From positions 551-64,550 of the forward strand of contig CAZGZR010000004.1 in NCBI GenBank assembly GCA_964529745.1: 64,000 nt of DNA, read 5' to 3'. Each line of letters starts with the position of its first letter. The stretch's first letter is position 1. Source of the stretch: an uncultured Candidatus Bathyarchaeia archaeon (GTDB taxonomy: Archaea > Thermoproteota > Bathyarchaeia > TCS64). Positions 5,188 through 63,664 of the stretch are shown piece after piece. Made by a program: the position numbers and the translations under genes. The notes under the pieces are model-generated. The model was not told the origin of the DNA, did not search any database, and saw only the letters and a list, made by a program, of their open reading frames with translations.

Positions 5188-5302
5188 GTCTAGGGTATAC
5201 TGTAGCTCTTCGTGTGCTATGCCCCCATTTAGACTCGAGGAGCTACCTGTCTCCAACTATGTTGAACATATATTTCAACAATAATGATCACAATAGTAAC
5301 CA

Positions 5303-5455: not shown

Positions 5456-5756
5456 AATGCGTATTAATATGAATAAATGTGCATCTTAATCGTACAACTA
5501 AATTAGATGTGTTAATCATAAAAATTATATCCTGTCAAGAAAAAGAAGGTATTACAGACTCGCGCCTCCGGCAAGGCCCATCTACGGGTGGGGTTCCTGT
5601 CAAAATAGTCGAGCTAACGCGTGAAGCTGCTGACGAGCAGTGAAGGACGATAGGTGAGTCGGGTGTGCCCCTGCAAATAGTGACGTGGGGACCGAGGGAG
5701 GCCGGACCCGATAAACCGCCTCACACTATATGTTATACATACCTCTTATGTTTCTA

Positions 5757-14008: not shown

Positions 14009-14758
14009 CTACACCATCACCTCCTCTAAGATTATTTCTCCCTGTCTCAATTCATCCCAATGTAGAGACATATGACAATTTCGACATAAACTTGTAAGGT
14101 TTGAGGGGTTATTATTAGTTTTAATGTGATCTATGTGGTGTACATGTAGTTTATACTCTAATTCATCTTGATTTATTCCACATAGTTGACAAGTATAGCT
14201 ATCTCTTTTTCTTATTATCTCTTTAAGTTCTGTACAAAATTCTGCACCGTAAGGCTCAAAGGATATCCCCCCCTGCCAATTAGGGTGATTCTCCCCCGCA
14301 TTTTCTCCCTTCTTAAACTGAGTTTCTCTAAAGTTTGTTATTCCTTCAGGAGACATCCATTCCTCTATTGGTTTTCCTTTTAAGGGTGAAGGTTGACCAA
14401 GATGGGCTTCTGACATGTGGTTAGCATATTCTAGATCTTGCCATAACTCTTTAATTCTCTCTGAGTTCTTCTCTCGGAAGCGTCCTAGGCTTAAGGTTTC
14501 CTCACGTGATCTCGTTGGTATACTGTATCTCTTCATAGCTGTCTGAATCGCCTGTCGTGAACAAGGGTATAGATCGGCTATTTCATTCTGACTTAAGTTG
14601 TCTTCTAAGTATAGTTTAGCTAATTTTTCTCTATCTAAATATAACTTCATCCTTGCCTTGTCATGACATTCATGAGAACAGTATTTTGCTGTGTCTTCTC
14701 GATATGGTCTAACCTCAAAAAGGTTACCACAGTACTCACAAATTAAACTAATAGGTAT
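14009..14758 (-). CDS. HNH homing endonuclease with N-terminal Zn finger and HTH
   Basis: CQLC..VHHID..N..NL..LCRNCH; AT-rich; in-frame CEYC..YCSHEC extension back to ATA 14758. Confidence 0.85.
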   Translation of the reverse strand: MPISLICEYCGNLFEVRPYREDTAKYCSHECHDKARMKLYLDREKLAKLYLEDNLSQNEIADLYPCSRQAIQTAMKRYSIPTRSREETLSLGRFREKNSERIKELWQDLEYANHMSEAHLGQPSPLKGKPIEEWMSPEGITNFRETQFKKGENAGENHPNWQGGISFEPYGAEFCTELKEIIRKRDSYTCQLCGINQDELEYKLHVHHIDHIKTNNNPSNLTSLCRNCHMSLHWDELRQGEIILEEVMV

Positions 14759-14760
14759 GC

Positions 14761-15513
14761 TTAGACCTCCTTATCCAGTATCAGTATCGCCTGCTCCCGG
14801 GGGCTTCGGTGCTCCCCGGGGATCTCCTTCCGGTCTGGCCACAGCAGCAGCCTTCCCTTGAAGGGCGGTGTCAGTTTGCTCGTCGCCTCGTCTATCTCCT
14901 TGAGCATGTACCTGTGGCTTATCAGGCCGTCTTCTCTTATCGTGAACACCGGCATCGTGGGGGGAAGCATAGCCACCACCAGCCTCTTCTCCGTGTGATC
15001 CCACATCTGCTGAAGGGGTTCATAGAGTAAAGGTAGGTGCTGTACTACTTGGAGGCTGAAAACAGTATCGTAGACCCCTGTATGAGGCGGCGCCCACCCC
15101 CTCAGTCCTGATATGTCGAATACGTCCCCTACCTCAAAGCAGGCCTCATTAAGGGGGAAACATTCTCGGGCCAGCTTTATCATGTTCTCACAGTCTAGCC
15201 CCAAGTACTCCGATATGAGGGCAGACCCCATCTTTAGCACCCCAAACAGGTGTCCAACGCCACACCCCATGTCTAGCACTGTCTCCCCGCGTAGATACTG
15301 CACCACCCTCTGTGTTCGATGTCTTTTCCCTCTCTGCCCTATCGTTCTGGGCTTATAATCTGGGGACGGGTTACCCCAGCCCTTCAGACACTCCGCTGCG
15401 TGGTCTGGGTTATGCGTCCACGGCTCCCAGAACCTGTTCTCAGGGTCTAAGGGTCGTCCCTTACTCCCCCACTCTTTGTAGAGTGGGCTGTCCTTTGCGT
15501 TCAGTCTCTTCAT
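14761..15513 (-). CDS. Class I SAM-dependent methyltransferase
   Basis: VLDMGCGVG, YLGLD, VVQHL. Confidence 0.85.
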   Translation of the reverse strand: MKRLNAKDSPLYKEWGSKGRPLDPENRFWEPWTHNPDHAAECLKGWGNPSPDYKPRTIGQRGKRHRTQRVVQYLRGETVLDMGCGVGHLFGVLKMGSALISEYLGLDCENMIKLARECFPLNEACFEVGDVFDISGLRGWAPPHTGVYDTVFSLQVVQHLPLLYEPLQQMWDHTEKRLVVAMLPPTMPVFTIREDGLISHRYMLKEIDEATSKLTPPFKGRLLLWPDRKEIPGEHRSPREQAILILDKEV

Positions 15514-16571
15514 CCTAATCCCTCTATTATCTCGAGCTCCTCTTCAATGACGCCTATATTCGTGCTCCTGTCAAACTTCAGACCCTGCCTTATGGAGTCA
15601 CTACATAGAATCTGATACAGCACGGGGTCCTCCTTCAGTATCTCTAGGATATGCCTCTTGGTCGGCTCGAAGTCCTTGAACACCAGGCCCACGGATCCCA
15701 TCTGCTCCCTGCACGCCCCCGCCTCTCTCGCCACTGGATAGCAGCCGGCGTTCATGCCCTCGTAGAGCATTAGACTCGCGGACTCCGCTGGGCTGGGATG
15801 AAACAGAACTTTGCTGGCTGCCATGAAGCCGGCTACCAGGCGGCGAGGTATGTTCACGTAGTGCTCAAAGTTAAGGGAGTCCGTCAGTTGTTTGACGTCC
15901 ATGGGGTCCTTCACCAGGAAAATCCCTACTACGGTTAGACCCACCTCGCTGAGCTCCGTAGCCTCCTGGAACTCCTGACTCAATACCTTGGCGCCCTCTT
16001 TCTTCCCTCCAAACCAGCTGTGCCGGTACTTCGCTGAAAACACGACGTCTATTTTTCTGTCCTCCCAAGGCATAGCCGCCTCCCGGAAAGGTCGATAGTC
16101 GTGAGGGGCATAGATCACCCGGGGCTCTGGGGCGTTAGGGGGAATGTATGGCGCTAGTATCTTCTTCTGGGTCTCGCTGTTGGTCCATATCCTGGCCACG
16201 GCGTCGGGGTTCCACCTAGTAGGAGGCGCTATGTTCCAGCAAACCACAGGGCATTTCACGTACTCACCTATCCAACTGTAGTCTAGATACGGCACTAGGA
16301 GCATGTCGCTCTTATTCCACTCTTCAAGTGGCATCCGCTGCGGGGTTTGTCTCTGAATCGGGTACCCAAACTCAAAGTTATCCAGGGTCAGGTTGTATGC
16401 AAGGTGGTAATCCAGTATTCTCTCTTTCTGGGATATGTGGCCTCCCAGGAAGTTTCCGTACACCTTGACGTCGTGACCCATGGAGGCGAAGCAGTCGGCG
16501 AACCCGGATATCATGGTCTGCTGGCGTCCGCCGGCGCTGGCTAGGTTATACTCTAATACGCTGATCTTCAT
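15510..16571 (-). CDS. GT4 (GT-B) glycosyltransferase
   Basis: GG..Q N-motif, HPSPAESASLMLYEGMNAG (EX7E). Confidence 0.8.
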   Translation of the reverse strand: MKISVLEYNLASAGGRQQTMISGFADCFASMGHDVKVYGNFLGGHISQKERILDYHLAYNLTLDNFEFGYPIQRQTPQRMPLEEWNKSDMLLVPYLDYSWIGEYVKCPVVCWNIAPPTRWNPDAVARIWTNSETQKKILAPYIPPNAPEPRVIYAPHDYRPFREAAMPWEDRKIDVVFSAKYRHSWFGGKKEGAKVLSQEFQEATELSEVGLTVVGIFLVKDPMDVKQLTDSLNFEHYVNIPRRLVAGFMAASKVLFHPSPAESASLMLYEGMNAGCYPVAREAGACREQMGSVGLVFKDFEPTKRHILEILKEDPVLYQILCSDSIRQGLKFDRSTNIGVIEEELEIIEGLG

Positions 16572-17707
16572 CCTCTCACCTTCACCCCTAGATCCTTAAG
16601 GCGGTCCTTGACGTCGCTCTCCTGCTTAGATAGATAGCTGATCTCATTATAGTAGTCCGTGAACAGTTTTTCGTACCTGTCTAGCGCCTTCTCCATATTG
16701 AAGGTAGTCTCTAGCTCCTTTGTCTGCCGCCACCTGATCGCATTCCACTCGGGCTCGGAGGTTAAGAGTACGCTTAGCATCCTAGCCCAACTCTGGGGGT
16801 CGTCATGGTATGCGTTGAGGGCCGCCTTGAAGGAGTTCCCCCACCCGCACCTACTTACCACGCAGGGTACCCCTGCTGCATAGGCCTGAAGCACGGACTG
16901 AGGGAGGTTCTCGCTGAAACTGGGGAGCGCGAACACCCGGGTCTCCTTGAACAGCAGGTTAAGGTCCTCCATGTAGCCAGTAAACTTGTAGTCTTTACCC
17001 TCCTCGAGGCCTAGAACCTGAAGCATATTATCAAGTATGGGGGAAAGCGTGGGGCCTGCCCCCACTATCGCAAGCTCCGCCTCTGGAACCTTTGATTTAA
17101 CCAGGTTAAACGCCTGTATAAGGGTGATATGGTTTTTAATGGGGTAGACCCGGGCCAGACATGTCACCACCGGATCAGGACTCATGGGCTGCCTCTCTAT
17201 CGCGTCTACGTCCACGATCGTCGGTATCACAGAGCATCTTTCCCCGCCTACCATGCTCTTAACTTGACCAGCGGTGTTTTCGCTCGCCGCTATTATGTGG
17301 TCGACGCCTGCGAGGGCTGACACCACGAAGGGTATTACCTCATGGTATTCCGGTAGGGTAAGCAGCTCTAACAGGTTTATCCCCAGCCTCATGAAGATAG
17401 GGTAGTTGCTCTTAAGCCTCGACAGGTCGCTGTAGGTTGTTATGTTGAAGTTGTGTATCACAAAGATATCGGGGTTCAAGGCCTCCGTTGCCTCCGCCAC
17501 CGATCTCGTCGCATAGTACATAGGCACCGGTGAATCCGTTTTTGCCTCAAGGAACGGCTTCTCTGTGTTTATATCCAGAGGAGGCACATGTAGAAGCATA
17601 ACCTCTATGTCTCTTTCCCTAAGTTTTCTCGCTACAAGCTCGGCCTGAGGGGTAGACCCTGTTCGCCCACCTATCTGAGTGGTCCAAACTACCTTAATTT
17701 TGCTCAT
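16568..17707 (-). CDS. GT4 glycosyltransferase
   Basis: ARVYPIKN, PSFSENLPQSVLQAYAAGVP. Confidence 0.9.
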   Translation of the reverse strand: MSKIKVVWTTQIGGRTGSTPQAELVARKLRERDIEVMLLHVPPLDINTEKPFLEAKTDSPVPMYYATRSVAEATEALNPDIFVIHNFNITTYSDLSRLKSNYPIFMRLGINLLELLTLPEYHEVIPFVVSALAGVDHIIAASENTAGQVKSMVGGERCSVIPTIVDVDAIERQPMSPDPVVTCLARVYPIKNHITLIQAFNLVKSKVPEAELAIVGAGPTLSPILDNMLQVLGLEEGKDYKFTGYMEDLNLLFKETRVFALPSFSENLPQSVLQAYAAGVPCVVSRCGWGNSFKAALNAYHDDPQSWARMLSVLLTSEPEWNAIRWRQTKELETTFNMEKALDRYEKLFTDYYNEISYLSKQESDVKDRLKDLGVKVRG

Positions 17708-24351: not shown

Positions 24352-24612
24352 TTAGAAAAATATTGGTATTCCCATCCTTTAGCTACCTTTATACTCTTCA
24401 ATAATCTAAGGGCTAAATGGCTAAAAATGCCACCCGCACGGACAATCAACCTGAAAGGAGTCGATCTATCAGCCTACGATATCTGCTATAGTAATCGTAA
24501 AGGAGAAGTACTATGTATAAACGCCCCCGACAAAGACGAGTTAAAAGAACTCTTCACATGGGCGTTAGCTGAAGTAGAGATGAACCCTTAGAGTTAGAAA
24601 AATATTGGTATT
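24352..24612. repeat. 19-bp direct repeat TTAGAAAAATATTGGTATT (24352-24370 and 24594-24612)
   Basis: Exact match; second copy is the 3' end of the UbiA gene. Confidence 0.85.
24427..24591 (+). CDS. Small hypothetical protein between the direct repeats (not in ORF track)
   Basis: MPPARTINLKGVDLSAYDICYSNRKGEVLCINAPDKDELKELFTWALAEVEMNP. Confidence 0.5.
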   Translation: MPPARTINLKGVDLSAYDICYSNRKGEVLCINAPDKDELKELFTWALAEVEMNP

Positions 24613-25852: not shown

Positions 25853-26608
25853 CTACATCATCCTCTCTAACACTTTCTCAAGAATCACCCGACGTATCGA
25901 CTTCCCCCTCTTCCTCAGAATAACCGGGTTCTTCATGGCTTCGAGCACCAGTTCAACGGGAAAGTGGTTTATCAACTTGTTTTTTGCTACATCTAGCCGC
26001 ATCGGTATCTCCATTAGCGTCGGTATCCCCTGGTCCTCAAAGTCGTGATCCTCAGGAAAAATGTTGAATCCATAACCACACCTAGGGCACTCCACTAGGG
26101 TCATGTTCTTGACGAGTCCTAGGATAGGAGTCTCTGATTCCCTGCAGAGCTCTATAACCCGCTCCACATTGGACTTAGCTAAAACGCTGGGAACCGTCAC
26201 GACAAGCACATAGTCCATCAGAGGGATCATCGCCTGAGGCTCATTTCCGGTTCCGGGGGGAAAATCCACTATCAGATACTCTAGCCCGCTCCAGTCTGTT
26301 TCAGTGAAAAGCTGCTTAGCGGCTGCTGATAAGTCGTCACCCGCCCACATCACCGGGTCACCCTCAGAGGCTAATTGACCTAGTGATATGAACTTTAGCC
26401 CATCCTCGTCTGTTGGGATGAACCTGTCATCTTCAACGACAAGGGGTGCTTTACAGAGTATATCGGTCAGGTTAGGGCCTGTCAGGTCGACGTCCAGCAT
26501 ACCTGTACGGTATCCTTTACGCTGGAGGGCCCTTGCTAGGCTGTGAGCTACTGTGGTTTTACCTGTTCCGCCCTTTCCGCTTATGACTCCTATCTTCGTA
26601 AGCGTCAT
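25853..26608 (-). CDS. Mrp/NBP35 (ApbC-like) P-loop ATPase
   Basis: SGKGGTGKTT, DVDLTGP, DFPPGT, NM...CPRC. Confidence 0.85.
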   Translation of the reverse strand: MTLTKIGVISGKGGTGKTTVAHSLARALQRKGYRTGMLDVDLTGPNLTDILCKAPLVVEDDRFIPTDEDGLKFISLGQLASEGDPVMWAGDDLSAAAKQLFTETDWSGLEYLIVDFPPGTGNEPQAMIPLMDYVLVVTVPSVLAKSNVERVIELCRESETPILGLVKNMTLVECPRCGYGFNIFPEDHDFEDQGIPTLMEIPMRLDVAKNKLINHFPVELVLEAMKNPVILRKRGKSIRRVILEKVLERMM

Positions 26609-28348: not shown

Positions 28349-28591
28349 GTGACCGATAGCGACCTTAATACTCTTCTACGGCAGCTGGTGCCGGCGCCGC
28401 CACCGTATCCACCCGTACCCTTGTTTCTGTTAGAGAACGAGACCGCCCTAAAGGAGATTTTTAAACCGACGTTTAGAAATGACATACTTTTAGACTCGGT
28501 TTCGTGGGGTGTAGGTGTAGGGATAAGCCGGATCATAAGACAGGCACTATCACAGTTGAAGATACCTGGAGCAAAAAGTGTGGAGATCTAG
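28349..28591 (+). CDS. Small PPPYPP protein with GxGxG segment
   Basis: PPPYPPVP...WGVGVG; GGAG RBS. Confidence 0.6.
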   Translation: MTDSDLNTLLRQLVPAPPPYPPVPLFLLENETALKEIFKPTFRNDILLDSVSWGVGVGISRIIRQALSQLKIPGAKSVEI

Positions 28592-28593
28592 AT

Positions 28594-30402
28594 ATGAGTA
28601 GGGAAGAGAGACAGGACCCCTTTGAGGCGATAGCGAAGGGATTGAAGCAGGTTCAAACCGTAGTAACTACTTTTGACCAGGGAATGAAGGTAATAGACGA
28701 CATGGCCAAGAGGATTGATGATCAGTTCGGTGTCCCACAAAATGAACCGGCGCCGCAGCTCCCTAAATCCCCCGAGAGGCCACCCGCTGCGACTAAAGTG
28801 TACGGCGCAGAGGCCAAGACCTACAAAGGACAGACAGACGTAGACTACTGTATCGAATGTCTAACAGGCACAACTAAGCTGTACACAGGTAACTCGACTG
28901 TTAAGATAAGTAGCATACTGGATAAACACACAGTAATCGGTCACACAGGACAAGTTGAGAGTATTGATAATGTGATTAGCAGAGACTACGATGGCCCATT
29001 AGTAGAGTTAAAGTTTGCTTACACTAACATTCCGCTATACATATCCCCGGAACACCCCGCATACATTGTCAGAAACGTTAGAAAGCCTCAGTCTACATGG
29101 AGAGAAGAGGGAATACAAGAAAAAGACTTAGATTGGGTTCCATGTGAAGAGTTAACTGACAGAGATTTCATTGCTTTTCCTAGGATAAGGGAAATTAAAG
29201 ATGTAGAAATAGCCTCTGAGCGACTTATGGAACTGTCAGGTATATATATAGCTGAAGGGAGCCCAGACAAACAAGAAAGGGGTTTGAATGTAATCTTTAG
29301 CTTTGGACGAGATGAAGTCGAGCTAATAGGAGACACCGTAAACCTGATTGAGAATATCTATGGGATTACTCCCTGTGTTACAGACACCGAAACTCAGACT
29401 GCAGTAAGGGTGATTTTTTCTAGTAAATACTATGGCCCATATTTCGAGCAGTTTGGCAAGGGAGCTAAGAATAAAACTATTCCACAGTGGGTACTCTACC
29501 TACCTGAATACAAGCAAGTTAAGTTACTTAGAGGTGCCTTTAGGGGTGATGGATCACCAGGAGAATACTGTTTCAGATATACAACGGTATCAGAACAGCT
29601 AGCTTACAGACTTAGATTACTGTTATTCCGGCTGGGTATACTACATGGCGTATATGAGAGAGAAAAAGATGATTCTGAGATAAATGGCCGTAAGATAAAG
29701 GGCGGAACATATTACGAGATAACAATATCTGGAGACGCCGCTAGACAATTTGCAGAGATAACTGATTTCGAATATGACGGAGGAGAAAAAACAGCCGGTA
29801 ACCATGGATACGTCACGGCGAACTACGTCTTCATACCTATAAAAGAAGCGAGAAAAATTCACTTTAAGGGGAAACTCTATAACCTACATGTACCTGGCTC
29901 CGAGTCTTATCTGACTATTCACGGTGCTCTGCATAACTGTGCGGTCAAGCACAGCCAGACGGCCAAGGTTCTCATGAGAGAGGCACTACAGAGAGCAGAG
30001 TCAAACGGTGTGGATACAGAGGGTGTGAAAGAGAAGGTCCGGGGCGTCGTTGAGGAGCTGTCCGGCCTGGAAGACGACACAACCACTGTATCCAGTCAGC
30101 AGGTGATAATCCTTAACGGCGCCTCCAGAGACCTACGTAAGTTCATCTATGAGTCCAGGGCTGAGATTGGGGGAGCGAAAATAAGCACTCTCCGAGAGAT
30201 CAAGACCATGATAGATCAGCTGGTGGAGGCCACTTACAAGGTTAGAGAGACAGAGGAGTGTATAGGCTGCACCACTGAGCAGATATGCGGCGGGATAGCT
30301 GAGTGCGTGGATTTTGTCGATAAGAATGTGGAGGGTATTAGGGACCCGGCGGTGATACGTAAGGTATTAGCTGAAGCCCGGCGAAAGTACGGCAGAGAAT
30401 AA
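28594..30402 (+). CDS. Helical Cys-motif hypothetical protein interrupted by an intein (mature ~242 aa)
   Basis: Start ATG 28594; extein junction restores YCIECAVKH. Confidence 0.8.
   Translation: MSREERQDPFEAIAKGLKQVQTVVTTFDQGMKVIDDMAKRIDDQFGVPQNEPAPQLPKSPERPPAATKVYGAEAKTYKGQTDVDYCIECLTGTTKLYTGNSTVKISSILDKHTVIGHTGQVESIDNVISRDYDGPLVELKFAYTNIPLYISPEHPAYIVRNVRKPQSTWREEGIQEKDLDWVPCEELTDRDFIAFPRIREIKDVEIASERLMELSGIYIAEGSPDKQERGLNVIFSFGRDEVELIGDTVNLIENIYGITPCVTDTETQTAVRVIFSSKYYGPYFEQFGKGAKNKTIPQWVLYLPEYKQVKLLRGAFRGDGSPGEYCFRYTTVSEQLAYRLRLLLFRLGILHGVYEREKDDSEINGRKIKGGTYYEITISGDAARQFAEITDFEYDGGEKTAGNHGYVTANYVFIPIKEARKIHFKGKLYNLHVPGSESYLTIHGALHNCAVKHSQTAKVLMREALQRAESNGVDTEGVKEKVRGVVEELSGLEDDTTTVSSQQVIILNGASRDLRKFIYESRAEIGGAKISTLREIKTMIDQLVEATYKVRETEECIGCTTEQICGGIAECVDFVDKNVEGIRDPAVIRKVLAEARRKYGRE
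28858..29937 (+). mobile_element. Intein with LAGLIDADG homing endonuclease (360 aa)
   Basis: Starts CLTG, SPEHP block B, LSGIYIAEGS and LLRGAFRGDGS, ends LYNL...LHN followed by Cys. Confidence 0.93.
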
Positions 30403-35281: not shown

Positions 35282-35353
35282 TATAGTTTGCGCTGGATAA
35301 CCTGTGCAGGTGTCAGGGTTTTTATGTGGTACCCCCCAGTTGTTAGGTATACC

Positions 35354-36160
35354 ATGTCCATGCTCACGCCGGATATGCTTAAGGCCCGGATAAGGCTAGC
35401 AATGAGGCACCCCAACTCGGCTACTCCTGCAAGAGAGATTATTGAGAAGGCCCTAGAGAAAAGAGTCTATGTGGCGTTTAGCGGTGGCCGCTGTAGCCAG
35501 GTAACCCTCCACCTGGTCATACAGCAGGATCCAGATATCCCCGTGATGTTCAACAACACCGGCGTAGAGTACCCTGAAACCGTGAAACATGTGCACCGGA
35601 TCGCCGAGGAATGGAACCTAAACTTCAAGGAGATACGCCCAGAAACCGATTACTGGACCCTCGTTAAAGAGCACGGGTTCCCCCAGCTGAGGGGCTCCTC
35701 TAAGAAGAAGGGACGGCCAAGGAAGCCGGCGTGCTGCAGGTACCTGAAAGAGGAACCGGCTAAAAGATACATGGAGGAGCACCACATGGATGGCTTTATC
35801 TCGGGGCTTCGGGTAGAGGAGAGCCGCCCCCGGGCGTTGGCGATATACCAGAGGGGTCCCTATTACTTGGCTAAGAGGGACGGTATCTGGAAGTTCCACC
35901 CGGTGGCTGTGTGGTCCATGGGAAAGCTCATGAGGTATGTGAAGGACCACGATATCCCTTTGAACCCGCTTTACGAGAAGGGCCTGCCTCGAGTAGGCTG
36001 TATGCCGTGCACTGGATTCTTGGACTGGCGGCAGCAGCTGATGGAGGTTAACCCAGAGTATTATAAGTGGCTTAACCGGGAGTACCAGAAGTCGCTAGGC
36101 GAGCCTACCCTATGGGAGTTCGTCGACGAATACGATCTCTGCGTCGAGGACCTCAAGTAA
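35354..36160 (+). CDS. PAPS-reductase-family protein (variant PP-loop)
   Basis: AFSGGRCS, NTGVEYPET, CC..LK.EP, GLRVEES..R, RVGCMPC. Confidence 0.85.
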   Translation: MSMLTPDMLKARIRLAMRHPNSATPAREIIEKALEKRVYVAFSGGRCSQVTLHLVIQQDPDIPVMFNNTGVEYPETVKHVHRIAEEWNLNFKEIRPETDYWTLVKEHGFPQLRGSSKKKGRPRKPACCRYLKEEPAKRYMEEHHMDGFISGLRVEESRPRALAIYQRGPYYLAKRDGIWKFHPVAVWSMGKLMRYVKDHDIPLNPLYEKGLPRVGCMPCTGFLDWRQQLMEVNPEYYKWLNREYQKSLGEPTLWEFVDEYDLCVEDLK

Positions 36161-36269
36161 TCCCTTTATGGGATTACGTTAATGTTCACCGTTTAGAAAC
36201 CTTGTTTTAACAGCATTATAACCCGTGTAACAGCACAAGATATAAATTACTGTCTGTTGTTAAGAATAA

Positions 36270-36350
36270 CTGAGGGTTGGGCGCGTAGGGGTCCAGGGCC
36301 ATTCCGGATCAAGAACCTCTGGGCCTTCTCACCCTCAGCCTGAACTTTTT
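36270..36350 (+). ncRNA. Candidate hairpin small RNA upstream of origin
   Basis: TATAAATTA at 36241; CTGAGGGT/ACCCTCAG stem plus 11-bp inner stem with G-U pairs; T5 at 36346-36350. Confidence 0.5.
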
Positions 36351-36537
36351 GAGGTAGTCCAGCGCCACTGGACTACGTAACTGTTTTAATGGTGATATAC
36401 CCCCTCTAGATTGATCCGGAATGGAACGTGATCAATGTAATCTCAAAGAGGATAAGTTTCTCTCCCGGCCGCCGATCGTCTCCTACAGACAGGATAATCC
36501 TAATATCTGTGATACAATTATACCGCTGCTTCTAACT

Positions 36538-36692
36538 TCTACGCAGGTAGTCTACTGGGAGGAGACTACCTACTCCGAAGGTCTACTAGCAAAAACTACA
36601 GGTAGTAGTCTACCAGTAGACTACTACCCCCCCTATTTCACTAATAGTCAATCGGAGGAGATAGTCTCTTGTCAGTAGACTACCTGCGTAGA
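36538..36692. repeat. 155-bp imperfect palindrome with GTAG(T/A)CTAC iterons; candidate replication origin
   Basis: Perfect 20-bp outer arms (36538-36557/36673-36692) and 13-bp central arms (36601-36613/36616-36628). Confidence 0.8.
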
Positions 36693-36701
36693 CGACAGAA
36701 G

Positions 36702-37256
36702 ATGATTAAACAGCTCACAAAACTAATCTTTCTATCTGATATACCTCACGAATGGGTTCTAGATGAGCTACATAACCTCGTCTTAAACATGAGCAGCTTC
36801 AAGGTTTTGGCCTGCATCCTCAATCACCGGGCAGCCACGGCCTACTTTCTAAGAAGCGAGCTCAAGATGACGAAACCGACGGTCTACAAGTCTCTGAATT
36901 ATCTAAAGGATCAGGGATACATCGTTGAGTCTAGGCCTGTGTCAATTAAGGGGACCAGGAGCGTGAAGGTGTATGCGGTCCCCGATTACACAGCCGACGA
37001 CGTTCTACACGCCAGGGAGAAAGACAGGATCACTAGGACGCCGGCGTACACAGAGGTAGAGAGGATATACCAGGCTATGCTTGACGATTATCTCCTGTTG
37101 AAGATAACTAACTATCTGCCTGAGAGGAAAAAGATCTACACCGGTTCGCTGAACGAAGTGGGAAGAAAACTCGTCAAGGGCGTAAGGTGGCTGGATATAC
37201 AGCCTATGGTTCTACAGAAATTTGAGGATCAAGGCTACAAAGTAGTAGTGGGGTGA
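36702..37256 (+). CDS. Winged-helix protein, candidate origin-binding initiator
   Basis: LKMTKPTVYKSLNYLKDQGYIVE wHTH; directly before mcm; ATG 36702. Confidence 0.75.
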   Translation: MIKQLTKLIFLSDIPHEWVLDELHNLVLNMSSFKVLACILNHRAATAYFLRSELKMTKPTVYKSLNYLKDQGYIVESRPVSIKGTRSVKVYAVPDYTADDVLHAREKDRITRTPAYTEVERIYQAMLDDYLLLKITNYLPERKKIYTGSLNEVGRKLVKGVRWLDIQPMVLQKFEDQGYKVVVG

Positions 37257-37260
37257 CAAT

Positions 37261-39318
37261 ATGGCAGAACAAAAAGAGGAAACATACGACTCTCAATTTA
37301 TACAGTTTATAGAGGATTACAAAATAGGGAGGGGATACCCCTACGAAAAGAAAATATCCTTATTGGTAACCGAAGGAAAGAGAAGCTTAACCGTAGACTA
37401 TACTGACTTGTACGCTTACGATATTGGCCTGGCAGTTAAGGTTCTTAACAACCCGATCTTGATGCTCAAGGAGTTTGGGGTAGCTGTGTTTCAGAAGATG
37501 CGGCCAAGTCTATCTCCTCTAGATGCAGAGCAGTTAAGGGCCTACGAAGAAAAAGAGAACGTGATCACTGTCAGGTTCAATAAGGTACCGAATCTAGTAT
37601 CATTACGCCACCTGGAAGCAGCTCACATAGGGACGATGATAACCGTGACCGGCATAGTGGTAAGCACCAGGGTACCTTATCCAAAGCTAACAAAAGCCGT
37701 GTTCAGGTGCATGACCCCCGGGTGCAAAACGGTCTCAAATGAGTTAGTGCAGCCCTACGAATTCCTGTTCCCGACACCGGGAGAGTGCCCCAACTGCAAG
37801 GGTAATATGTGGATCGTCGACCCAATGCTAAGCACATACACGAATGTTCAAGAAGTAAAAATTCAGGAGCGACCTGAGGAACTTCCCCCGGGTCAATTAC
37901 CTCACAGCATCAAGGTCCTCCTTAAAGACGACTTAGTGAACACCGTGAATCCAGGAGACCGAGTGACTCTAACCTGCATAGTCTCCGCTAAACAGGTGAA
38001 ACCAAAGTCCCTTGAAATGGAGCTACTGCTAGAGGGAAACTACGTTGAGCAGATAGCGCCGGGGCAGGAGTCCATGGAGATGTCACCAGAGGATCTAGAC
38101 AAGATAAAGGAGCTCGCAGCGGATCCCTACATATTCAACAAGTTAGTGGAAAGCATGGCGCCGAGCATCTATGGGCACAGGTACATCAAAGAGGCCATGG
38201 CGGAAGCTCTCTTTGGTGGGGTCCCTAAACAGATAGGAACCACAAGGATAAGAGGAGATGTAGACGTTCTGATGGTAGGTGACCCGGGCACCGCCAAGAG
38301 CCAGATGCTCGAGAGAGCAGCTAGACTAGCTCCCCGGGGGCTACTGACGACAGGTAGAGGGTCGACGGCGGCGGGGCTCACGGCGGCAGCCATCCAGGAG
38401 AGAGGAGGCGGCGGCTTCGTCCTCGAGGCGGGGGCCCTGGTTCTCGCGGATAAGGGTGTCTGCTGCATAGACGAGATCGACAAGATGAGGGACGAGGACA
38501 GGGGCGCCATACACCCCGCCATGGAGCAGCAGGTGGTGAGCATCGCCAAAGGAGGGATAGTTGCGACCCTCAATGCAAGGACAGCGGTGATAGCTGCAGC
38601 GAACCCCACCCTGGGGCGGTATAACCCCTACCAGACGATAACCGAGAACATCACATTATCGGTGCCCCTGCTAAACCGGTTTGATACCATATTCGTGATG
38701 AGAGATGAGCCGAATCCTGAGCGGGATGCGGAGATGGCGGACCACATCTTAAGGATGCACCGAGCCCCAGAGGAGATGAAGGCGCCGATACCTGACGAGC
38801 TTCTACGCAAGTACATAAACAGCGCAAAGGCGATAACGCCGACGCTGACGGACGAGGCGGTTAAGATGCTGCGAGACTTTTACCTGAAGCTTAGAGCCGC
38901 GTCCGTCGATTCAACCATAATGATAACGGCTCGACAGCTGGAGAGCCTGATAAGGCAGAGTGAGGCAAGGGCGAGGGCACGGCACAGTAAAGAAGTGACG
39001 GAAGAGGACGCTATGGGTGTCATAGCCCTGATGAACAACGTCATGACCCAGATAGGCATAGACCCAGAGACGGGACAACCGGACCTAGATATAATCTTGA
39101 CCGGGAAACCAAAGAGCCTTCAGGATAAGCTTCAGAGATTGCTCACAGTGATAAGGGAGATGTCAGTGAACACGGCTGTAAGAGACGATGATCTATACGA
39201 AGTTCTCCAAAGTGACCACGGCATGGCCCTCAGCGAGTCCGCTAGACTGGTTGGCATATTGATGAGGGATGGAGCAATATTCAGTCCACGCCCAGGGTTC
39301 TACAAGGCCATAAGCTAG
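37261..39318 (+). CDS. mcm: MCM replicative helicase
   Basis: Zn finger, GDPGTAKSQ, CCIDEIDKM, AAANP, ITARQLES, C-terminal wH. Confidence 0.97.
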   Translation: MAEQKEETYDSQFIQFIEDYKIGRGYPYEKKISLLVTEGKRSLTVDYTDLYAYDIGLAVKVLNNPILMLKEFGVAVFQKMRPSLSPLDAEQLRAYEEKENVITVRFNKVPNLVSLRHLEAAHIGTMITVTGIVVSTRVPYPKLTKAVFRCMTPGCKTVSNELVQPYEFLFPTPGECPNCKGNMWIVDPMLSTYTNVQEVKIQERPEELPPGQLPHSIKVLLKDDLVNTVNPGDRVTLTCIVSAKQVKPKSLEMELLLEGNYVEQIAPGQESMEMSPEDLDKIKELAADPYIFNKLVESMAPSIYGHRYIKEAMAEALFGGVPKQIGTTRIRGDVDVLMVGDPGTAKSQMLERAARLAPRGLLTTGRGSTAAGLTAAAIQERGGGGFVLEAGALVLADKGVCCIDEIDKMRDEDRGAIHPAMEQQVVSIAKGGIVATLNARTAVIAAANPTLGRYNPYQTITENITLSVPLLNRFDTIFVMRDEPNPERDAEMADHILRMHRAPEEMKAPIPDELLRKYINSAKAITPTLTDEAVKMLRDFYLKLRAASVDSTIMITARQLESLIRQSEARARARHSKEVTEEDAMGVIALMNNVMTQIGIDPETGQPDLDIILTGKPKSLQDKLQRLLTVIREMSVNTAVRDDDLYEVLQSDHGMALSESARLVGILMRDGAIFSPRPGFYKAIS

Positions 39319-42433: not shown

Positions 42434-43751
42434 TCACCGCATACTCCGTTAACTTTATGGGGATAGCGTTGACTCTTTGGACGCCTATCTTATGCCACTT
42501 CTTCTTTATCTCTATCCCCACGTAGTTGATCCCCAGCTGCTTGGCTGCCACGCACGTCGTATAGGTCCCGCCGAAGGGGTCGACGGCTAACCCTCCTGGA
42601 GGCGTACCCAGCCTCAGCAGCCAGGCCATGAGCTTCACCGGCTTGACCGTGGGGTGAACATTTCTACGGGGCGTAGTCTTGGCGCCGTCGAGCCGCGCTT
42701 TTCTCCCTCCCGATAGATTCAGTTTAGACTTTGGCTTTTTCTTTGGACCCTTGTAGACTCCGTACTCCTTCTCCTTGGTGGTGGGTTTAGGGACGTCCAG
42801 GAACCCGTATGTCTCCACCCACACCTTACGGTTCCAGTAGGCAACGTCTTCTACTATGCCGTGGGCGTCGGCCCACAGGTCGAGGTCGAAGTATCGCCAG
42901 CTGTCCCCCTCGTCTCCGTAGGTGTGCTTAGCCTCTATCTCCGTCGGCTCTCTATCATAGTGGCCATAGGCTACACGGTTAAAGGGGCCGAGGTGGTGGT
43001 GAGGCTCTATCTTACCGGACTTGGTTATCGTGCCGTCGCTTAGAGCCTGATCTGACACTATGAGATTAGCGGGGAACCTACCCTCCCCTGGGTCTCGTCT
43101 CACGGCGTGAGCCTTACCCTGGAAAGCACTGTTACGCGCAGACTCGTATAGGTCCTTCCTGTACCAGTTGTTATCCTCAAGGGCCTCCTCACCAGAGAGA
43201 GGGATAAGGCAGTCACCTACATTGATGGCGCCCGTTCCCCACTCCATGACGTTCTCGGCTATCGTGGGCTCGCTCAGGGGCTTATGAACCATAAGAACCG
43301 GTTCAAGGGCTGGTTTCAGCCCCGTTATACTTTTCCAACCATTATACCGCTCTGCAACAGGAAACGATTCATTAAAAAGAGGTAGCATAGGTGAGGCTTT
43401 TTTTTCTAGCTCCTTTCTGATGTCCATAGCCTTAGGAAACCCTGTTTTGTATATCCAGGATATGAAGCTCTGAGTGGTGACGAACCCCACCTTCTCCAAG
43501 AGCAAGACCATTCGTGCGAGGAGGTCCTGACGGGGGCTACACATCACGAACGCTATGCCCCCGGGCTTAAGCACCCGGTGCATCTGGGTAAACGCCTCAA
43601 GGGGCGGCAGCGTCTTATCCCAATCCAGCTCCATGTACTCTAGACCGTATGGGGGGTCCGTTGCGAAAGTGTCCACTGTGTTGTCTTCCCAGGTGTCCAT
43701 GACCGGGATGCAGTCGCTACAGATCAGTTGATTAACCGGCGGCTTAGGCAT
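42426..43751 (-). CDS. Beta-class DNA methyltransferase (DPPY, probably m6A)
   Basis: TDPPYG ... GFPKA ... HPTVKP ... DPFGGT. Confidence 0.92.
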   Translation of the reverse strand: MPKPPVNQLICSDCIPVMDTWEDNTVDTFATDPPYGLEYMELDWDKTLPPLEAFTQMHRVLKPGGIAFVMCSPRQDLLARMVLLLEKVGFVTTQSFISWIYKTGFPKAMDIRKELEKKASPMLPLFNESFPVAERYNGWKSITGLKPALEPVLMVHKPLSEPTIAENVMEWGTGAINVGDCLIPLSGEEALEDNNWYRKDLYESARNSAFQGKAHAVRRDPGEGRFPANLIVSDQALSDGTITKSGKIEPHHHLGPFNRVAYGHYDREPTEIEAKHTYGDEGDSWRYFDLDLWADAHGIVEDVAYWNRKVWVETYGFLDVPKPTTKEKEYGVYKGPKKKPKSKLNLSGGRKARLDGAKTTPRRNVHPTVKPVKLMAWLLRLGTPPGGLAVDPFGGTYTTCVAAKQLGINYVGIEIKKKWHKIGVQRVNAIPIKLTEYAVNE

Positions 43752-50408: not shown

Positions 50409-51404
50409 ATGCAGACAAGCGACTATGAGGAACCCATAGAGGCCCCCAACAGGTGCTCGGAGTGTGGCTCTAGAAACTTGGTAACCACTCAAGACACCCT
50501 CGAGGTAGTGTGCCGCGACTGTGGAACTGTATTGACGACGGTAGTGGCCAACCGAGATAGAGAGTGGAGGGCCTTTTCCTACGATGAACACCAGACACGA
50601 ACAAGAACGGGCCCGCCTCTTGATAGTCGTATAGAGAAGCCGTTGACGACGTACATACCTCAGAACGGCATAGACACGAACGGGAACCTTCTGGACTTAG
50701 AGACCCGACGACAGATGCGACGGATCTCGAGGTGGAACAACAGGGTTAACACCTTCGACTCCAGGGATCGAAACTTCAGGATAGCACAGACAGATCTTCT
50801 TACAATAAGAGATAACCTAAACATCCCTAACGGAGTCTATGAAACCTCTCTGTTTGTCTACCGTAAAGCCCTGGACGCATCGCTCATTAGAGGAAGAACG
50901 ATAAAAGACATAGCGCTGGCAGCCATGTACATGGCGTGCAGAATCAATGATCACCCCATCTCCATCACCGAGTTTGCGGAGAAGGGGGACTTAAAGAAGA
51001 AAGACCTGGCCCGCTGCTACCGGCTGCTGATCCGAAACCTAGACATTGATATCCCCAACCCTCAAGAGAAGCAGAGGATAAAGCGTATAGCTAACAAGCT
51101 GGAGATGAACCTTACAGTTCAGCAGTACGCATACCTGATCCTCCAAGAAGCGAAACGGCTGAGATCCACCATAGGTAAAGACCCAAAAGGATTAGCAGCG
51201 GCCGCACTCTACCTGGCTCAGAGATATATTGACTCTGGCGAGAAACCTAAAACACAGGAAGAGATAGCAAACGAAGCTAAAACGACGGAGGTAACCGTCC
51301 GTAACCGGTATAAAGGGCTCATAAATGACCTAGGCGAGGAAAAACTTCTCGAGATAAGAGACCACCTAAGAGGCTCGAATTTCTACTTTTCTGATGCCTC
51401 ATGA
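50409..51404 (+). CDS. tfb: Transcription initiation factor TFB (TFIIB)
   Basis: CSECG..CRDCG ribbon, EWRAF, RTG, two cyclin repeats, GKDP.GLAAAALY, TTEVTVRNRYK. Confidence 0.95.
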   Translation: MQTSDYEEPIEAPNRCSECGSRNLVTTQDTLEVVCRDCGTVLTTVVANRDREWRAFSYDEHQTRTRTGPPLDSRIEKPLTTYIPQNGIDTNGNLLDLETRRQMRRISRWNNRVNTFDSRDRNFRIAQTDLLTIRDNLNIPNGVYETSLFVYRKALDASLIRGRTIKDIALAAMYMACRINDHPISITEFAEKGDLKKKDLARCYRLLIRNLDIDIPNPQEKQRIKRIANKLEMNLTVQQYAYLILQEAKRLRSTIGKDPKGLAAAALYLAQRYIDSGEKPKTQEEIANEAKTTEVTVRNRYKGLINDLGEEKLLEIRDHLRGSNFYFSDAS

Positions 51405-57468: not shown

Positions 57469-58464
57469 TTATCGTTTGCGGTATCTGCTCCGATATTTCC
57501 TGAGGGTGTCCACCAGCTGGTCGACGTCGGCCTTGTTGTCGCAGAGTCGGCTAACACGTACCGCCTGCCGGACGTTCTCGGTGCCGAGGTCGCTACAAAC
57601 CTTCTCAGCTATGTACCTGGCTAAGTCTTCCGGTGTGCCTCCCATGATTAAAAGGTTGGTGGAGACGTTGAGAAACTGTTCCCGGGTGTACTCAGAGAAA
57701 TACAGCTGCTCAAACCTGCTAAGCAACTCGGCGCTGAGCCCCTTGACCGTATTAGCCGCCGCGAACACGACGGTTCCCAGCTGATCCTCTCGGTACCGCT
57801 GATACATGGTCTCGATAACCCTGCCGGTCTCCATGAGGCTAAGCAGCGGCGCGACGTCACGGTTACGGAGCTTATCGATCTCGTCTATGAGAAGAATCCT
57901 AGGCCGGTAACCCATGAGAAAATCGCTTAACCCTGGACCGGTTAGTCTGGACCCCAGCAGATAGTAGCTTCCAGGTATGCGTTCGAGCTCCATGAGGAAA
58001 AGCGTCTTAGCGCTTGCCGGCGGCCCATAAAGAAGCCAGTTGACGCGAACACCCATGTCGAGGGTGCGACGCAGCTGCTGTTTAACGTCGTCGTACCCTA
58101 TCACGCTGCTGAATAGGTCCGCCGGCGCCGTCGGTATCGTTACGGGGGCCGCGTCCTCCAGTTGGTTGACACCCACAGCCATGAGTGCCTCAGGTATGGC
58201 TTTAGGGTGCATGGTGACGTACCCGGTGCCGCTGTTAGACTTGTACACGCGCCGGAGAATCCCCCGAAGGTGCATAAGGTGCAGCAGCGGGGGGCTTATC
58301 GGCGGGCTGAAACTGTCCCACTGCCATCCCAACGTAAAAAAATAGGGGTCCTGGTAGTGCTTTTTCTCATAATCGTGAATGCGCTCAAGGTCCCCAGTGA
58401 CATTGGGGCGTTCATCAAGCAGCCTCAGTATCTCGATGACCACGGGTACCTTATCGATCTCCAA
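57469..58464 (-). CDS. AAA+ ATPase with N-terminal helical/wH domain
   Basis: YGPPASAKT, LLIDEIDK, AAAN, LLSRF. Confidence 0.88.
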   Translation of the reverse strand: MEIDKVPVVIEILRLLDERPNVTGDLERIHDYEKKHYQDPYFFTLGWQWDSFSPPISPPLLHLMHLRGILRRVYKSNSGTGYVTMHPKAIPEALMAVGVNQLEDAAPVTIPTAPADLFSSVIGYDDVKQQLRRTLDMGVRVNWLLYGPPASAKTLFLMELERIPGSYYLLGSRLTGPGLSDFLMGYRPRILLIDEIDKLRNRDVAPLLSLMETGRVIETMYQRYREDQLGTVVFAAANTVKGLSAELLSRFEQLYFSEYTREQFLNVSTNLLIMGGTPEDLARYIAEKVCSDLGTENVRQAVRVSRLCDNKADVDQLVDTLRKYRSRYRKR

Positions 58465-58663: not shown

Positions 58664-60148
58664 CTACGCAACCGCCTCTAACTCTAACTCGTGTAGCTTC
58701 TTTATGTAACGCTGATACTGATTTAACCGGTCCTCGGGAGCGCAGTTGATGCAGTTGATAGATCCGTCCTCCAGTCTGATCTCGCGGCCGTCGGGTATAG
58801 CGGCGCCGCATTCCTCACAGGTGTAGCCTTCAACCGCTGGTGTGGGTTTAGCCGGGGGCTCGGGCTCCGGTATAGGTTCGGGCGCCGGCTCGATGGGTTC
58901 AGTGGGTTCTATTATCTGTCTACTTGATAAGAATAACCTTGTGTGCTCTTCTCCGTATATCGATCCCTCGTTCGCTCGCCAGATAGTCCCGTCCAGGTCC
59001 TTGTAGTCCATACTTGGATTCTTTAACTTGTTTATTGCCCTCTTCAATGCGTCGACGGCCGTGATCCCCCGGAAATGGGTCCAGGGGTGTGACTCATAGC
59101 CTGCAGCGGGGGAAATAGAAACTATGGGGCTGCCTCGAATATTATCCTTATCCTTGATGGATATGCTGTACTTGTGGTGTATCAGGTCTCTTAACTCGTT
59201 GTAGAGTTCGTCGATGGTCTCCACCGTTTCTTTAGTACGAGATAAAGGTTCGCCTTTACAATAGGGACAAACTATATCCGACTTGGATATGGTTTTTCCG
59301 CAGTGTCCGCAGCGGTACACTATCTCCAGGGGCTTATACAGCGTCGGAACAGGGCTCCAGTCTACCCACTCGGCGCCTAGATAGTTTCCGCCTATACAGG
59401 GGGCAATGTAATAGTATAGGTGACCCCTGTAGATCTCCGCGTCTACCTTGATGGGCATATCCGTAGATAGGGAAAGGGTTACTACCTCGGCTATTTTGCA
59501 CACCTGGTTAAAGAAGGGCGCTAAGTAGCCTACACTGAAGTTAGCTATTTGATGGGTACCGGCGTTGTCGTTATACTTGAGCTCTAGTATGTGGTCACTG
59601 CTTCTTTTGAGGGGTATATCCTCAGCGGATTCGTCGTCGTTGGCCCCAAACTTAACCTGATCCTCGGATAGTTTGATGCTGAAATGCTCGTAGCCGTTAA
59701 AGTCCTTCAAGACGGATCTAATAGACTCGGTTACTAGGCGTACCTCGGACTTGTAGAATATCCTGGGCTCGGGAACCTCCTCGTCGGGGGGCTCCAGTAA
59801 AGGGATCCGTTTCTCTCTGCGTAGATCGTCCGTGTAGACGAAAAGCAGCCGGCCTTTCTCCTCCTCTAACTCGATGGTTAACATGGCGTCCAGCTTCTTA
59901 GCGTTTGACCGGAAAACCGTGTTACGCGCCTTCACGACATTAAAGAAAAGGGTCCTCGTCTCGGTGCACTCGTACACGTCAAAAGCGTCCGCCGGGATCT
60001 CGAGGTCAAGGAGCCCCATGTGGCCGGGGTCCATTGTCACTAGGGTTACCTTGTCGGGGTAGAACGTAAAACGCGCCTCCTCAACTAAGGTACCCACTAC
60101 ATAGAGCAAATCCCGAATAAACTCGGGTCTACTTGTTTCTAACCTCAT
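58664..60148 (-). CDS. pcn: PCNA sliding clamp with ~245-aa C-terminal extension
   Basis: MDPGHMGLL, LSTDMPIK, YYIAP core; then Zn ribbon, unknown domain, P/E linker, CEEC..CINC. Confidence 0.88.
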   Translation of the reverse strand: MRLETSRPEFIRDLLYVVGTLVEEARFTFYPDKVTLVTMDPGHMGLLDLEIPADAFDVYECTETRTLFFNVVKARNTVFRSNAKKLDAMLTIELEEEKGRLLFVYTDDLRREKRIPLLEPPDEEVPEPRIFYKSEVRLVTESIRSVLKDFNGYEHFSIKLSEDQVKFGANDDESAEDIPLKRSSDHILELKYNDNAGTHQIANFSVGYLAPFFNQVCKIAEVVTLSLSTDMPIKVDAEIYRGHLYYYIAPCIGGNYLGAEWVDWSPVPTLYKPLEIVYRCGHCGKTISKSDIVCPYCKGEPLSRTKETVETIDELYNELRDLIHHKYSISIKDKDNIRGSPIVSISPAAGYESHPWTHFRGITAVDALKRAINKLKNPSMDYKDLDGTIWRANEGSIYGEEHTRLFLSSRQIIEPTEPIEPAPEPIPEPEPPAKPTPAVEGYTCEECGAAIPDGREIRLEDGSINCINCAPEDRLNQYQRYIKKLHELELEAVA

Positions 60149-62111: not shown

Positions 62112-62129
62112 GTTTCCACCGTATAAGCT

Positions 62130-62144
62130 TATACAACTTGTATA
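62130..62144. promoter_or_regulatory. Palindromic operator copy 5 (TATACAACTTGTATA)
   Basis: 18 bp upstream of start 62111. Confidence 0.75.
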
Positions 62145-63004: not shown

Positions 63005-63018
63005 TAACGAACACCGTT

Positions 63019-63033
63019 TATACAAGTTGTATA
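63019..63033. promoter_or_regulatory. Palindromic operator copy 6 (TATACAAGTTGTATA)
   Basis: 14 bp upstream of GTG 63004. Confidence 0.75.
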
Positions 63034-63664
63034 ATTTGGATATAAACCTTTTTTTTTAAAAAAAAGTTTAATTGATAGGGATCGATTTATCCAGGTTACC
63101 CAGGTTATTGTTACAAAACCGCACAGTTTTGTAATACCCAAATAATGCGTTATTTTGATAATAATCGAATTGATAATAAATTGTCTCATTTTTTTAAAAA
63201 ATTTTTTTTTTCAAAAAATAATATAGGTTATTTCTCCATAATCCCTTTAATTTTCCTATCAGCTGCTTAGTCATGAACCTGGAAAAAGCGATAATCGACG
63301 ATTACGCGGATCAAGTCATGTTTGAGGTTGAATTAATAAAGTCGCTTATGAAGGATAACAACCTGGAGACACTGAAACATTTTAGGGCCTTATCCCAGGA
63401 CGATCGATCACTCGTTTTAGACTTGTATCGGTAATCTCTTTTTTTTCCCTGACCGTCAACGTATTGACGTCTATCAATGTTTCTACGATCCATGCATGCC
63501 TAAGATATATTGAGATCTATCAATATTTTCTGGGGCCCTCGTGTTCGAGATCATGATGGTTGGGCGTCCAATATTTTAGCGGTCAGGACCCCCCCAAGAA
63601 CATCTTTAGGAGGACCCCCCGAGCGCGGGGGCTCCGTGATCCCGTATAATTTTTGTTTCTACGT

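Follow-up and report, generated by a model that had tools for sequence, protein, structure and literature searches.

A four-box palindromic control region upstream of and overlapping a winged-helix–MCM gene pair on a probable archaeal mobile element, and its candidacy as a replication origin

How, in the absence of Orc1/Cdc6, the MCM helicases of archaeal viruses and plasmids locate and are loaded on the DNA that encodes them is an unresolved problem. It is raised by a locus on contig CAZGZR010000004.1 (C4 hereafter), of which we analyzed a stretch of 64,000 nucleotides (the window, to which positions refer unless another sequence is named). The contig, which was binned with a Bathyarchaeial genome, is probably that of an archaeal mobile element or virus. 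It carries a gene for a protein of the winged helix-turn-helix (wHTH) type followed by an MCM helicase gene, and an initial annotation of the DNA had described a nested 155-bp palindrome next to this pair, which it took to be an Orc1-independent origin bound by the wHTH protein. The locus is a compact and separable test case, comprising four candidate sites, a small, soluble-looking binding protein and a full-length MCM, and all three parts are amenable to expression and in vitro testing despite the uncultivated host. With a little less than even confidence, we favor a dual-purpose initiator and operator site, at which the wHTH protein would bind four boxes, repress its operon and mark an Orc1/Cdc6-independent origin.

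Architecture of the palindromic region

The palindrome is real and very unusual, far beyond chance. As the initial annotation had read it, the 20 bp of each outer arm (36538-36557; 36673-36692) pair without a mismatch, 16 of the 21 positions inward of them match, and a central 13-2-13 palindrome is present at 36601-36613 and 36616-36628. The four GTAG[AT]CTAC units that had been counted, at 36547, 36605, 36616 and 36675, are likewise there, out of totals of 5 copies in the 64-kb window and 36 in the 2.83-Mb genome. The dyad is, moreover, longer than first described: arms of 66 nt (36529-36594 and 36636-36701), 79% complementary and with 41 nt between them, make up a main module of 173 bp, P2 (36529-36701), which consists of the 155-bp palindrome and its extensions. 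TCTAC occurs four times in the left half of the palindrome and GTAGA three times in the right half, the orientation flipping at the center, and these seven copies in 155 bp are the window maximum (mean 0.42).

In a census of perfect inverted repeats of at least 14 nt with arms no more than 300 bp apart in the 2.83-Mb assembly (n = 285), the outer arms of P2 are the longest of the genome, with 20 nt compared to 16 nt for the runner-up. The palindrome is single-copy in the genome and constitutes the sole internal repeat in a blastn self-comparison of the 64,740-bp contig (E ≤ 1e-5), which also means that the contig holds no long att-like repeats. Folding of 36529-36701 as a single strand with DNA energy parameters yielded -48.2 kcal/mol (z = -10.6), a value that none of 200 shuffles equalled; the AT content of the palindrome is 45–60% in 40-bp windows. 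A fold-back or assembly artefact, which had been raised as a caveat, is rejected. Two further assemblies from public sequencing runs, X1 (contig of 24.6 kb, depth 101) and X2 (39 kb, depth 30.4), read through the palindrome with 0 differences and without joints there, although the two runs may be the window's own source data, and would then provide independent assembly and not independent DNA.

The repeat unit is better read as a dyad box of approximately 27 bp with the form AGGTAGTC-N11-GACTACCT, of which there are four, starting at 36352, 36545, 36600 and 36659 (start-to-start spacing of 193, 55 and 59 bp from A through D). Box B (36545-36571) has exactly this form and is used as the reference copy. 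Box A (36352-36378) is a AGGTAGTC-N11-GACTACGT dyad with 67% agreement with the reference and a TAGTC-N11-GACTA match at 36355, and box D (36659-36685) is a AGATAGTC-N11-GACTACCT dyad with 78% agreement. Box C (36600-36628) contains the perfect 13-2-13 palindrome, with two 9-bp units in tighter spacing, their centers 11 bp apart. Boxes B, C and D compose the large palindrome, and because the symmetry runs on through the spacers, P2 is more than three like sites in a row.

Box A lies near the center of a second, smaller palindrome, the upstream dyad module P1 (36300-36423; 124 bp), whose arms (36300-36312 and 36411-36423) match perfectly over 13 nt. Folded as single-stranded DNA, 36296-36427 gave -26.2 kcal/mol (z = -4.9), again with 0 of 200 shuffles as good. 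Since box A is part of P1, the feature reaches about 240 bp further to the left than first reported. Both modules fall within a 508-bp region that is non-coding according to the open reading frame (ORF) list (36161-36668), and an 85-aa ORF that crosses it (36421-36678; 0 Pfam families) is probably spurious. The pattern TAGTC-N11-GACTA has four copies genome-wide, three in this region and none elsewhere on the contig. With the boxes unique to the region on the contig, any specific target of the wHTH protein on the element would be here, and dimers of the TrmB/MarR-like wHTH protein encoded next to them probably bind the boxes. An iteron-type plasmid origin was considered as well and discarded, as the repeats are symmetric dyads, the site has no AT-rich region and no Rep-family protein was found.

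The control region is bounded on the left by a PAPS-reductase-family gene (35288-36160, plus strand; Pfam PF01507, E = 3.6e-33) and on the right by the wHTH gene (36669-37256, plus strand), which encodes 195 aa from TTG 36669 or 184 aa from ATG 36702. The wHTH stop codon is followed after 4 nt by the MCM gene (37261-39318, plus strand), which is complete and whose 685-aa product has the N, OB, P-loop and lid domains (Pfam). We favor TTG 36669 as the start because a GGAGGAG motif resembling a Shine-Dalgarno (SD) sequence (36655-36661, plus strand) is located 7 nt before it, and because P0002, the closest homologue of the wHTH protein, can be aligned with it from the first residue on and has a Leu in place of the Met of ATG 36702. 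SD-like motifs are found ahead of 23 of the 65 putative starts in the window, and there is none ahead of ATG 36702. In the folded strand, GGAGGAG pairs with the left arm. With a TTG start, box D covers both the ribosome-binding site and the start codon, and the right arm falls within codons 2-8. The earlier description of the palindrome as directly upstream of the wHTH and MCM genes is correct in that it adjoins them, but with this start not for the right arm, which would be inside the wHTH ORF. A TATA-like ATATAAAT and a TTATAA motif are present 300–450 nt upstream, near 36216-36247.

The winged-helix protein and its family

By family and fold, the protein encoded next to the palindrome is confidently predicted to be a winged-helix DNA binder. 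In Pfam, TrmB was matched with 25.6 bits, exactly the cut-off, and MarR with 24.1 bits against a cut-off of 24.6, whereas the NCBIfam matches (Sta1, MreA and Lrs14) were all sub-threshold. The AlphaFold2 model (predicted local distance difference test, pLDDT, 88.2) had its best fold match in 1ku9 (Z = 10.2, root-mean-square deviation 1.4, 63 residues), and residues ~23-108 resemble winged helices of the MarR, ArsR, Phr, Lrs14, TubR and AspA types (Foldseek/VIA); sequence matches in the PDB were to regulators of the same MarR/ArsR/Phr/Lrs14 kind. From its N-terminus, the protein comprises a TrmB/MarR/Lrs14-like winged helix, a linker with a conserved motif and, at the C-terminal end, a small domain. 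The C-terminal 91 residues alone (pLDDT 74) produced weak and tied matches with small domains that resemble winged helices and mediate protein interactions, among them the Slx4 CCD (Z = 5.7), the Rpa2 winged helix (4.9) and the Cdt1 C-terminal domain (4.8), so that a second winged-helix-like domain in this half is a weak lead and not a finding.

Searches of 1.84 billion representatives returned 58 relatives at E ≤ 1e-3, mostly proteins of about 200 aa matched over their full length, with the motif A.ERDR..RTP.Y.EV.RI.QL.LDDY in common after the winged helix. Judged by sequence, the protein belongs to an uncharacterized TrmB/MarR-like family that groups with the TrmB/MarR/Lrs14-type regulators. 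An atlas search for the family points to Bathyarchaeota. A tblastn search with the wHTH protein found no match in phage and plasmid records, protein and alignment searches of viral contigs and genome contigs gave nothing usable, and among metagenome contigs the family alignment retrieved two short ones only.

The genome itself encodes a second full-length member of the family on contig C94 (family profile E = 3e-50), whose neighbors are genes for an EndoMS/NucS-type endonuclease, a metallo-beta-lactamase-fold protein, a nucleoside phosphorylase and an ABC permease, and a single-protein wHTH query had matches in 65 of the 79 genomes of the order. We compared 17 host-type orthologous loci, with proteins 62–100% identical to the host copy. 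In 16 of them, the perfect palindrome TACTTGTTAACAAGTA or a close variant occurs at the gene's own promoter, and the 17th is one base off; this host-type palindrome is positioned directly upstream of a TATA-like CTTATAAG, approximately 60–70 nt before the start. It is absent from four more distant family loci in the same table. In the host copy (C94:1443-1558, L044) and in loci L012-L028, the promoter reads GTTTACTTGTTTACTTGTTAACAAGTA and then the TATA-like CTTATAAG, an arrangement kept across genera with proteins just 62–67% identical.

Together, these promoters indicate that the host family member is an uncharacterized, order-wide factor that would regulate its own expression. By extension, the conserved promoter palindrome at the host orthologues makes autoregulation the safest conclusion for the element's copy, for which it is well supported by analogy; boxes C and D adjoin or cover both the SD motif and the wHTH start. 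A separate observation concerns the metagenome contig L041, in which a family member has two dyad boxes of ~26 bp, 111 bp apart, over its start and N-terminal codons (674-809), which encode the similar peptides DLLSRRVN and DFLTRLVN. The gene that follows it (1623-1910) encodes a sigma-70 region-4-like helix-turn-helix and a TFIIB zinc ribbon.

Possible roles: initiator and operator, or operator only

If the site is both initiator and operator, the intergenic region at 36.3-36.7 kb would be the cis-acting control site of the element's replication module. Dimers of the TrmB/MarR-like wHTH protein would bind the four ~27-bp dyad boxes. Boxes C and D extend over the likely promoter, the ribosome-binding site and the opening codons, and their occupation would place the co-transcribed wHTH-MCM operon under autoregulation. 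This nucleoprotein array would also mark the replication origin, with the wHTH protein in place of Orc1/Cdc6, and the element's own MCM would be loaded there. Extrusion of the palindrome or protein-induced distortion may aid melting, and is invoked because the site has no AT-rich unwinding stretch.

The initial statement that orc1/cdc6 is missing was borne out by Pfam scans of the 56 window ORFs, which contain no Orc/Cdc6 family, and in the genome Cdc6_C (PF09079) is found on contig C37 alone. An element that has its own MCM and no Orc1/Cdc6 needs a factor to choose the loading site, and the MCM-coupled wHTH protein is the obvious candidate. The motif CCACTTTCACTCACCnCTCC, which is upstream of orc1 in 3 of 3 relatives and which we assume to be the origin recognition box of the host, is absent from the window when up to 1 mismatch is allowed; a single weak match, with two mismatches, is seen at 45486. 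A canonical Orc1/Cdc6-dependent origin was set aside, as no orc1/cdc6 was found on the contig and there is no AT-rich element between inverted repeats. Prediction of a complex between the MCM and the wHTH protein scored 0.00, which counts neither for nor against binding.

Origin function and recruitment of the MCM are plausible by analogy with two systems. Sulfolobus oriC3 is reported to fire without any Orc1/Cdc6 and to require the adjacent tandem-winged-helix protein WhiP, which also binds repeats in its own ORF, and the system has been proposed to derive from a captured extrachromosomal element (PMC3607249). As there, a small winged-helix protein is encoded beside the site, and the candidate binding sites reach into its ORF; an origin here would likewise be independent of Orc1/Cdc6. 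The present case differs in that no sequence similarity of the wHTH protein to Cdt1/WhiP was detected, in that the second winged helix of the tandem is here just a weak lead (Z ≤ 5.7), in that the partner is an element-encoded MCM in the same operon, and in that the site is GC-neutral and palindromic compared to the AT-rich repeats of oriC3.

In the second system, MCMs of Thermococcales viruses and integrated elements carry an N-terminal wHTH extension of ~200 aa, which has been proposed as an origin recognizer without Orc1/Cdc6; MCM-fused DNA-binding domains are put forward there as loaders as a hypothesis only (PMC12934983, preprint). The locus shares with these fusions a winged-helix module of ~200 aa just before the MCM, on an element without Orc1/Cdc6, but here the two are separate ORFs, with a stop codon of the wHTH gene's own and the 4-nt gap. 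The Altiarchaeum virus BK059162.1 has the order PAPS reductase, a repeat- and AT-rich region of 644 bp and a 777-aa MCM, whose N-terminus contains a weak TrmB/Rrf2-like wHTH. Like it, our element has a repeat-rich intergenic region directly upstream of the MCM module, with the PAPS-reductase gene beyond; unlike here, the viral region is strongly AT-rich with repeats of 10-bp period. In the viral sequence itself, four box copies of ~30 nt surround an ATATATC array of 10-bp period with a central dyad (1229-1872, L065), and this region looks like a textbook origin.

Palindromic viral origins with a dedicated binding protein include the SV40 core origin, with inverted GAGGC pentamers, and the 144-bp palindrome of HSV oriL. 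The present site resembles them as a large dyad of short oriented repeats that flip at the center, over the likely promoter of the replication genes, but the proteins and hosts are unrelated, and the AT-rich element beside or in those dyads is absent here. By analogy, the system would work like WhiP/oriC3 and the proposed wHTH-MCM fusions, while by sequence it is a member of neither. Taken as a whole, the following model is in our view unlikely: a host transcription-factor family supplied a stand-alone wHTH protein of ~195 aa that serves as a minimal initiator in place of Orc1/Cdc6, its dimers acting on a cruciform-prone, GC-neutral four-box array with no AT-rich unwinding element and both repressing their own operon and loading the element's MCM. 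Were this true, the locus would represent a two-gene, one-site replicon module, the split counterpart of the wHTH-MCM fusions and a functional parallel to WhiP/Cdt1.

Several results weigh against origin function at this site. Regarding the protein, homology to Orc1, Cdt1/WhiP or plasmid Rep was not detected in Pfam, NCBIfam or PDB sequences (for Cdt1, Pfam at E ≤ 0.01, NCBIfam and PDB-sequence matches; WhiP itself was not compared directly). Using hhalign, the wHTH family profile aligned to the MCM N-terminus of the Altiarchaeum virus with a probability of 4%, and to that of MFTV1 with 0.2%. A conserved, single-copy chromosomal member among ordinary metabolic genes suggests that the default role of the family is that of a transcription factor. 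A search for fused wHTH-MCM forms of the family returned none from 8000 long candidates that were scored, which is weak evidence, and for two family members on short metagenome contigs, that of L041 among them, MCM is not the next gene.

Regarding the DNA, the palindrome has no AT-rich unwinding element, its flanks reaching just 65–70% AT over 40 bp, and it is not among the 20 most AT-rich 60-bp windows, whereas 36192-36251, upstream in the same intergenic region, is. GC skew follows gene strand (r = 0.73), and after correction for coding strand the residual stays below zero as far as ~24 kb and above it thereafter; the skew check thus spoke against the proposed origin, with a switch near 24-27 kb, some 10 kb to the left, and not at 36.5 kb. 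Skew is, however, a weak guide in archaeal elements. Two other intergenic regions look like rival origin sites and are closer to classic origins. The first, 5300-5510, is up to 82% AT and iteron-like, with a 46-nt direct repeat in two copies (85%) and a 13-nt repeat in three, and the second, 63018-63232, is the most AT-rich stretch of the window (85–90% AT, with T8A8-type tracts). For the initial proposal of an Orc1-independent origin, the winged-helix fold, the coupling to MCM, the apparent recurrence of the pair in the one known relative and the absence of orc1/cdc6 from the contig stand, while the lack of an AT-rich stretch and the position of the skew switch do not agree with it.

At the second of these regions we also observed that TATACAAGTTGTATAA (63019-63034) is perfectly complementary to TTATACAACTTGTATA (62129-62144), forming a 16-bp inverted-repeat pair. 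Each of the two sites is upstream of minus-strand genes; they are probably promoter or operator sites, and possibly an origin.

It may well be, although we rate it clearly short of an even chance, that the palindromic region is an operator only. The wHTH protein would then repress its own operon and set the level of MCM, as a copy-number or lysogeny-type control, with the origin elsewhere. The CopG-RepB arrangement of pMV158-type plasmids provides a parallel for copy-number control of this kind. The conserved promoter palindrome at the host orthologues, the overlap of box D and the right arm with the SD motif and start codon, and the existence of family members without an adjacent MCM are all in line with this explanation, as are a palindrome that has no AT-rich stretch, a residual skew switch elsewhere, and the AT-rich repeat regions at 5.3 kb and 63.1 kb, which are free to serve as origins. 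However, a simple operator needs neither four boxes over 330 bp nor symmetry through the spacers, nor does it need the longest inverted repeat in a genome of 2.8 Mb. In addition, an element with its own MCM and without Orc1/Cdc6 needs an origin-recognition factor, for which the wHTH protein is the sole DNA-binding candidate beside the MCM, and the wHTH-MCM fusions of other archaeal viruses favor a direct role.

The comparison with autoregulated archaeal wHTH regulators (TrmB, MarR, Lrs14, Phr) is similarly divided. The fold and the weak sequence matches are shared with them, as are, in the host orthologues of the family, dyad operators at the gene's own promoter, but here four boxes are arranged in two palindromes and coupled to a replicative helicase, and the linker and C-terminal domain have no clear structural match. 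Even as an operator only, the locus would document an uncharacterized wHTH family with members in host and mobile element, together with its likely recognition logic.

The remaining explanations, namely an RNA-level element, a partition site, or an artefact, transposon or telomere site, are quite improbable even when taken together. We find it hard to credit that the region acts in RNA, as a leader hairpin that blocks translation by holding the SD motif and start codon in its stem, as a terminator or insulator after the PAPS-reductase gene, or as a small RNA. As computed with DNA energy parameters, the strand does form a single long hairpin, with GGAGGAG paired to the left arm, and the TATA-like ATATAAAT and TTATAA are situated upstream. 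Yet the boxes are internally symmetric and recur as direct copies, which is typical of protein-binding sites and not of a single stem, and an Rfam scan of the region gave nothing above the gathering score (best, OTKONC, 23.2 bits vs 141.4; E = 0.73).

Still less probable is a centromere-like partition site, with the wHTH protein as a centromere-binding protein like AspA of pNOB8 or TubR of type III systems. The wHTH domain does match AspA and TubR, among others, in fold and sequence, and the window has a ParA/Mrp-type ATPase gene (25853-26608). These matches do not, however, outrank the dozens that the domain has with generic wHTH regulators, the ATPase gene, 10 kb distant and on the opposite strand, has NUBPL/Mrp iron-transfer (PF10609) as its best family, and the wHTH protein is coupled to MCM and not to a partition ATPase.

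Least credible of all is a non-functional or unrelated structure, such as a fold-back artefact, an insertion resembling a miniature inverted-repeat transposable element (MITE), a protelomerase site or a recombinase site, for while the 20-bp perfect terminal inverted repeats, the large palindrome and a 208-aa tyrosine recombinase gene 7 kb away could be so explained, two assemblies agree in a mid-contig position, and a MITE or transposon remnant is ruled out by the single copy in the genome. The telomere-resolution site that had been offered as an alternative falls with imperfect arms, an asymmetric 2-nt central spacer, and contigs that read through mid-contig; Pfam scans of the window ORFs found no protelomerase-sized recombinase, just the 208-aa tyrosine recombinase.

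The element, its MCM and its relatives

The gene content of contig C4 resembles that of a mobile element or virus, with the MCM, a TFB homologue, two DNA methyltransferases, the PAPS reductase, a phage-family radical-SAM protein, the small tyrosine recombinase and many ORFs without matches. MCM, PAPS reductase, methylase and PCNA are found together in tailed viruses of archaea as well, for example HFTV1. No terminal direct or inverted repeats of the contig were found. As the low-GC contigs C6 and C43 of the bin carry ordinary cellular genes, low GC alone is not evidence of mobility for C4.

We next consider the MCM, which is 50–56% identical to the single chromosomal MCM in 77 of the 79 genomes of the order (53% to the host's own MCM on C37). 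These relatives of the order are Bathyarchaeota according to their sources, and MCM relatives on viral contigs are just 31–35% identical to that of the element. The closest MCM is P0061, with 69% identity, all others having ≤56%, and the closest relative of the wHTH protein is P0002 (196 aa, 59% identity), with no other close one. P0002 and P0061 each occur on a single contig, of 21,907 bp and from the same source. The wHTH-MCM pair thus appears to be conserved in 2 of 2 known elements, the adjacency of P0002 and P0061 being inferred from this shared source.

Additional genes in the window relate to replication and transcription. A PCNA homologue (58664-60148, minus strand) has a C-terminal extension of ~240 aa with zinc ribbons, and is beside a gene for an AAA+ protein (57469-58464, minus strand) that is weakly similar to clamp loaders; from its sequence, the element appears to carry its own clamp module. 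A complete gene for a TFB, resembling TFIIB, is located at 50409-51404, and another TFB is encoded on contig C6 of the same bin. A 632-aa ORF (28504-30402) with a LAGLIDADG homing-endonuclease domain resembles an intein lodged in a protein of unknown family. Beside a UbiA-family gene, an intergenic region is bracketed by the two copies of TTAGAAAAATATTGGTATT, a perfect direct repeat of 19 nt (24352-24370 and 24594-24612, 242 bp apart). Elsewhere in the bin, a tyrosine integrase beside a D5-like primase-helicase (D5_N + DUF5906) on contig C43 (~14200-17300, L056) is a separate small integrated element.

Finally, the X1 and X2 contigs both break at 43428-43467 and at ~58230-58250, and the 40 bp at the first of these places recur in a variant contig of low depth. 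These common breakpoints suggest strain variants or repeats at the border between methyltransferase and integrase and in the AAA+ gene.

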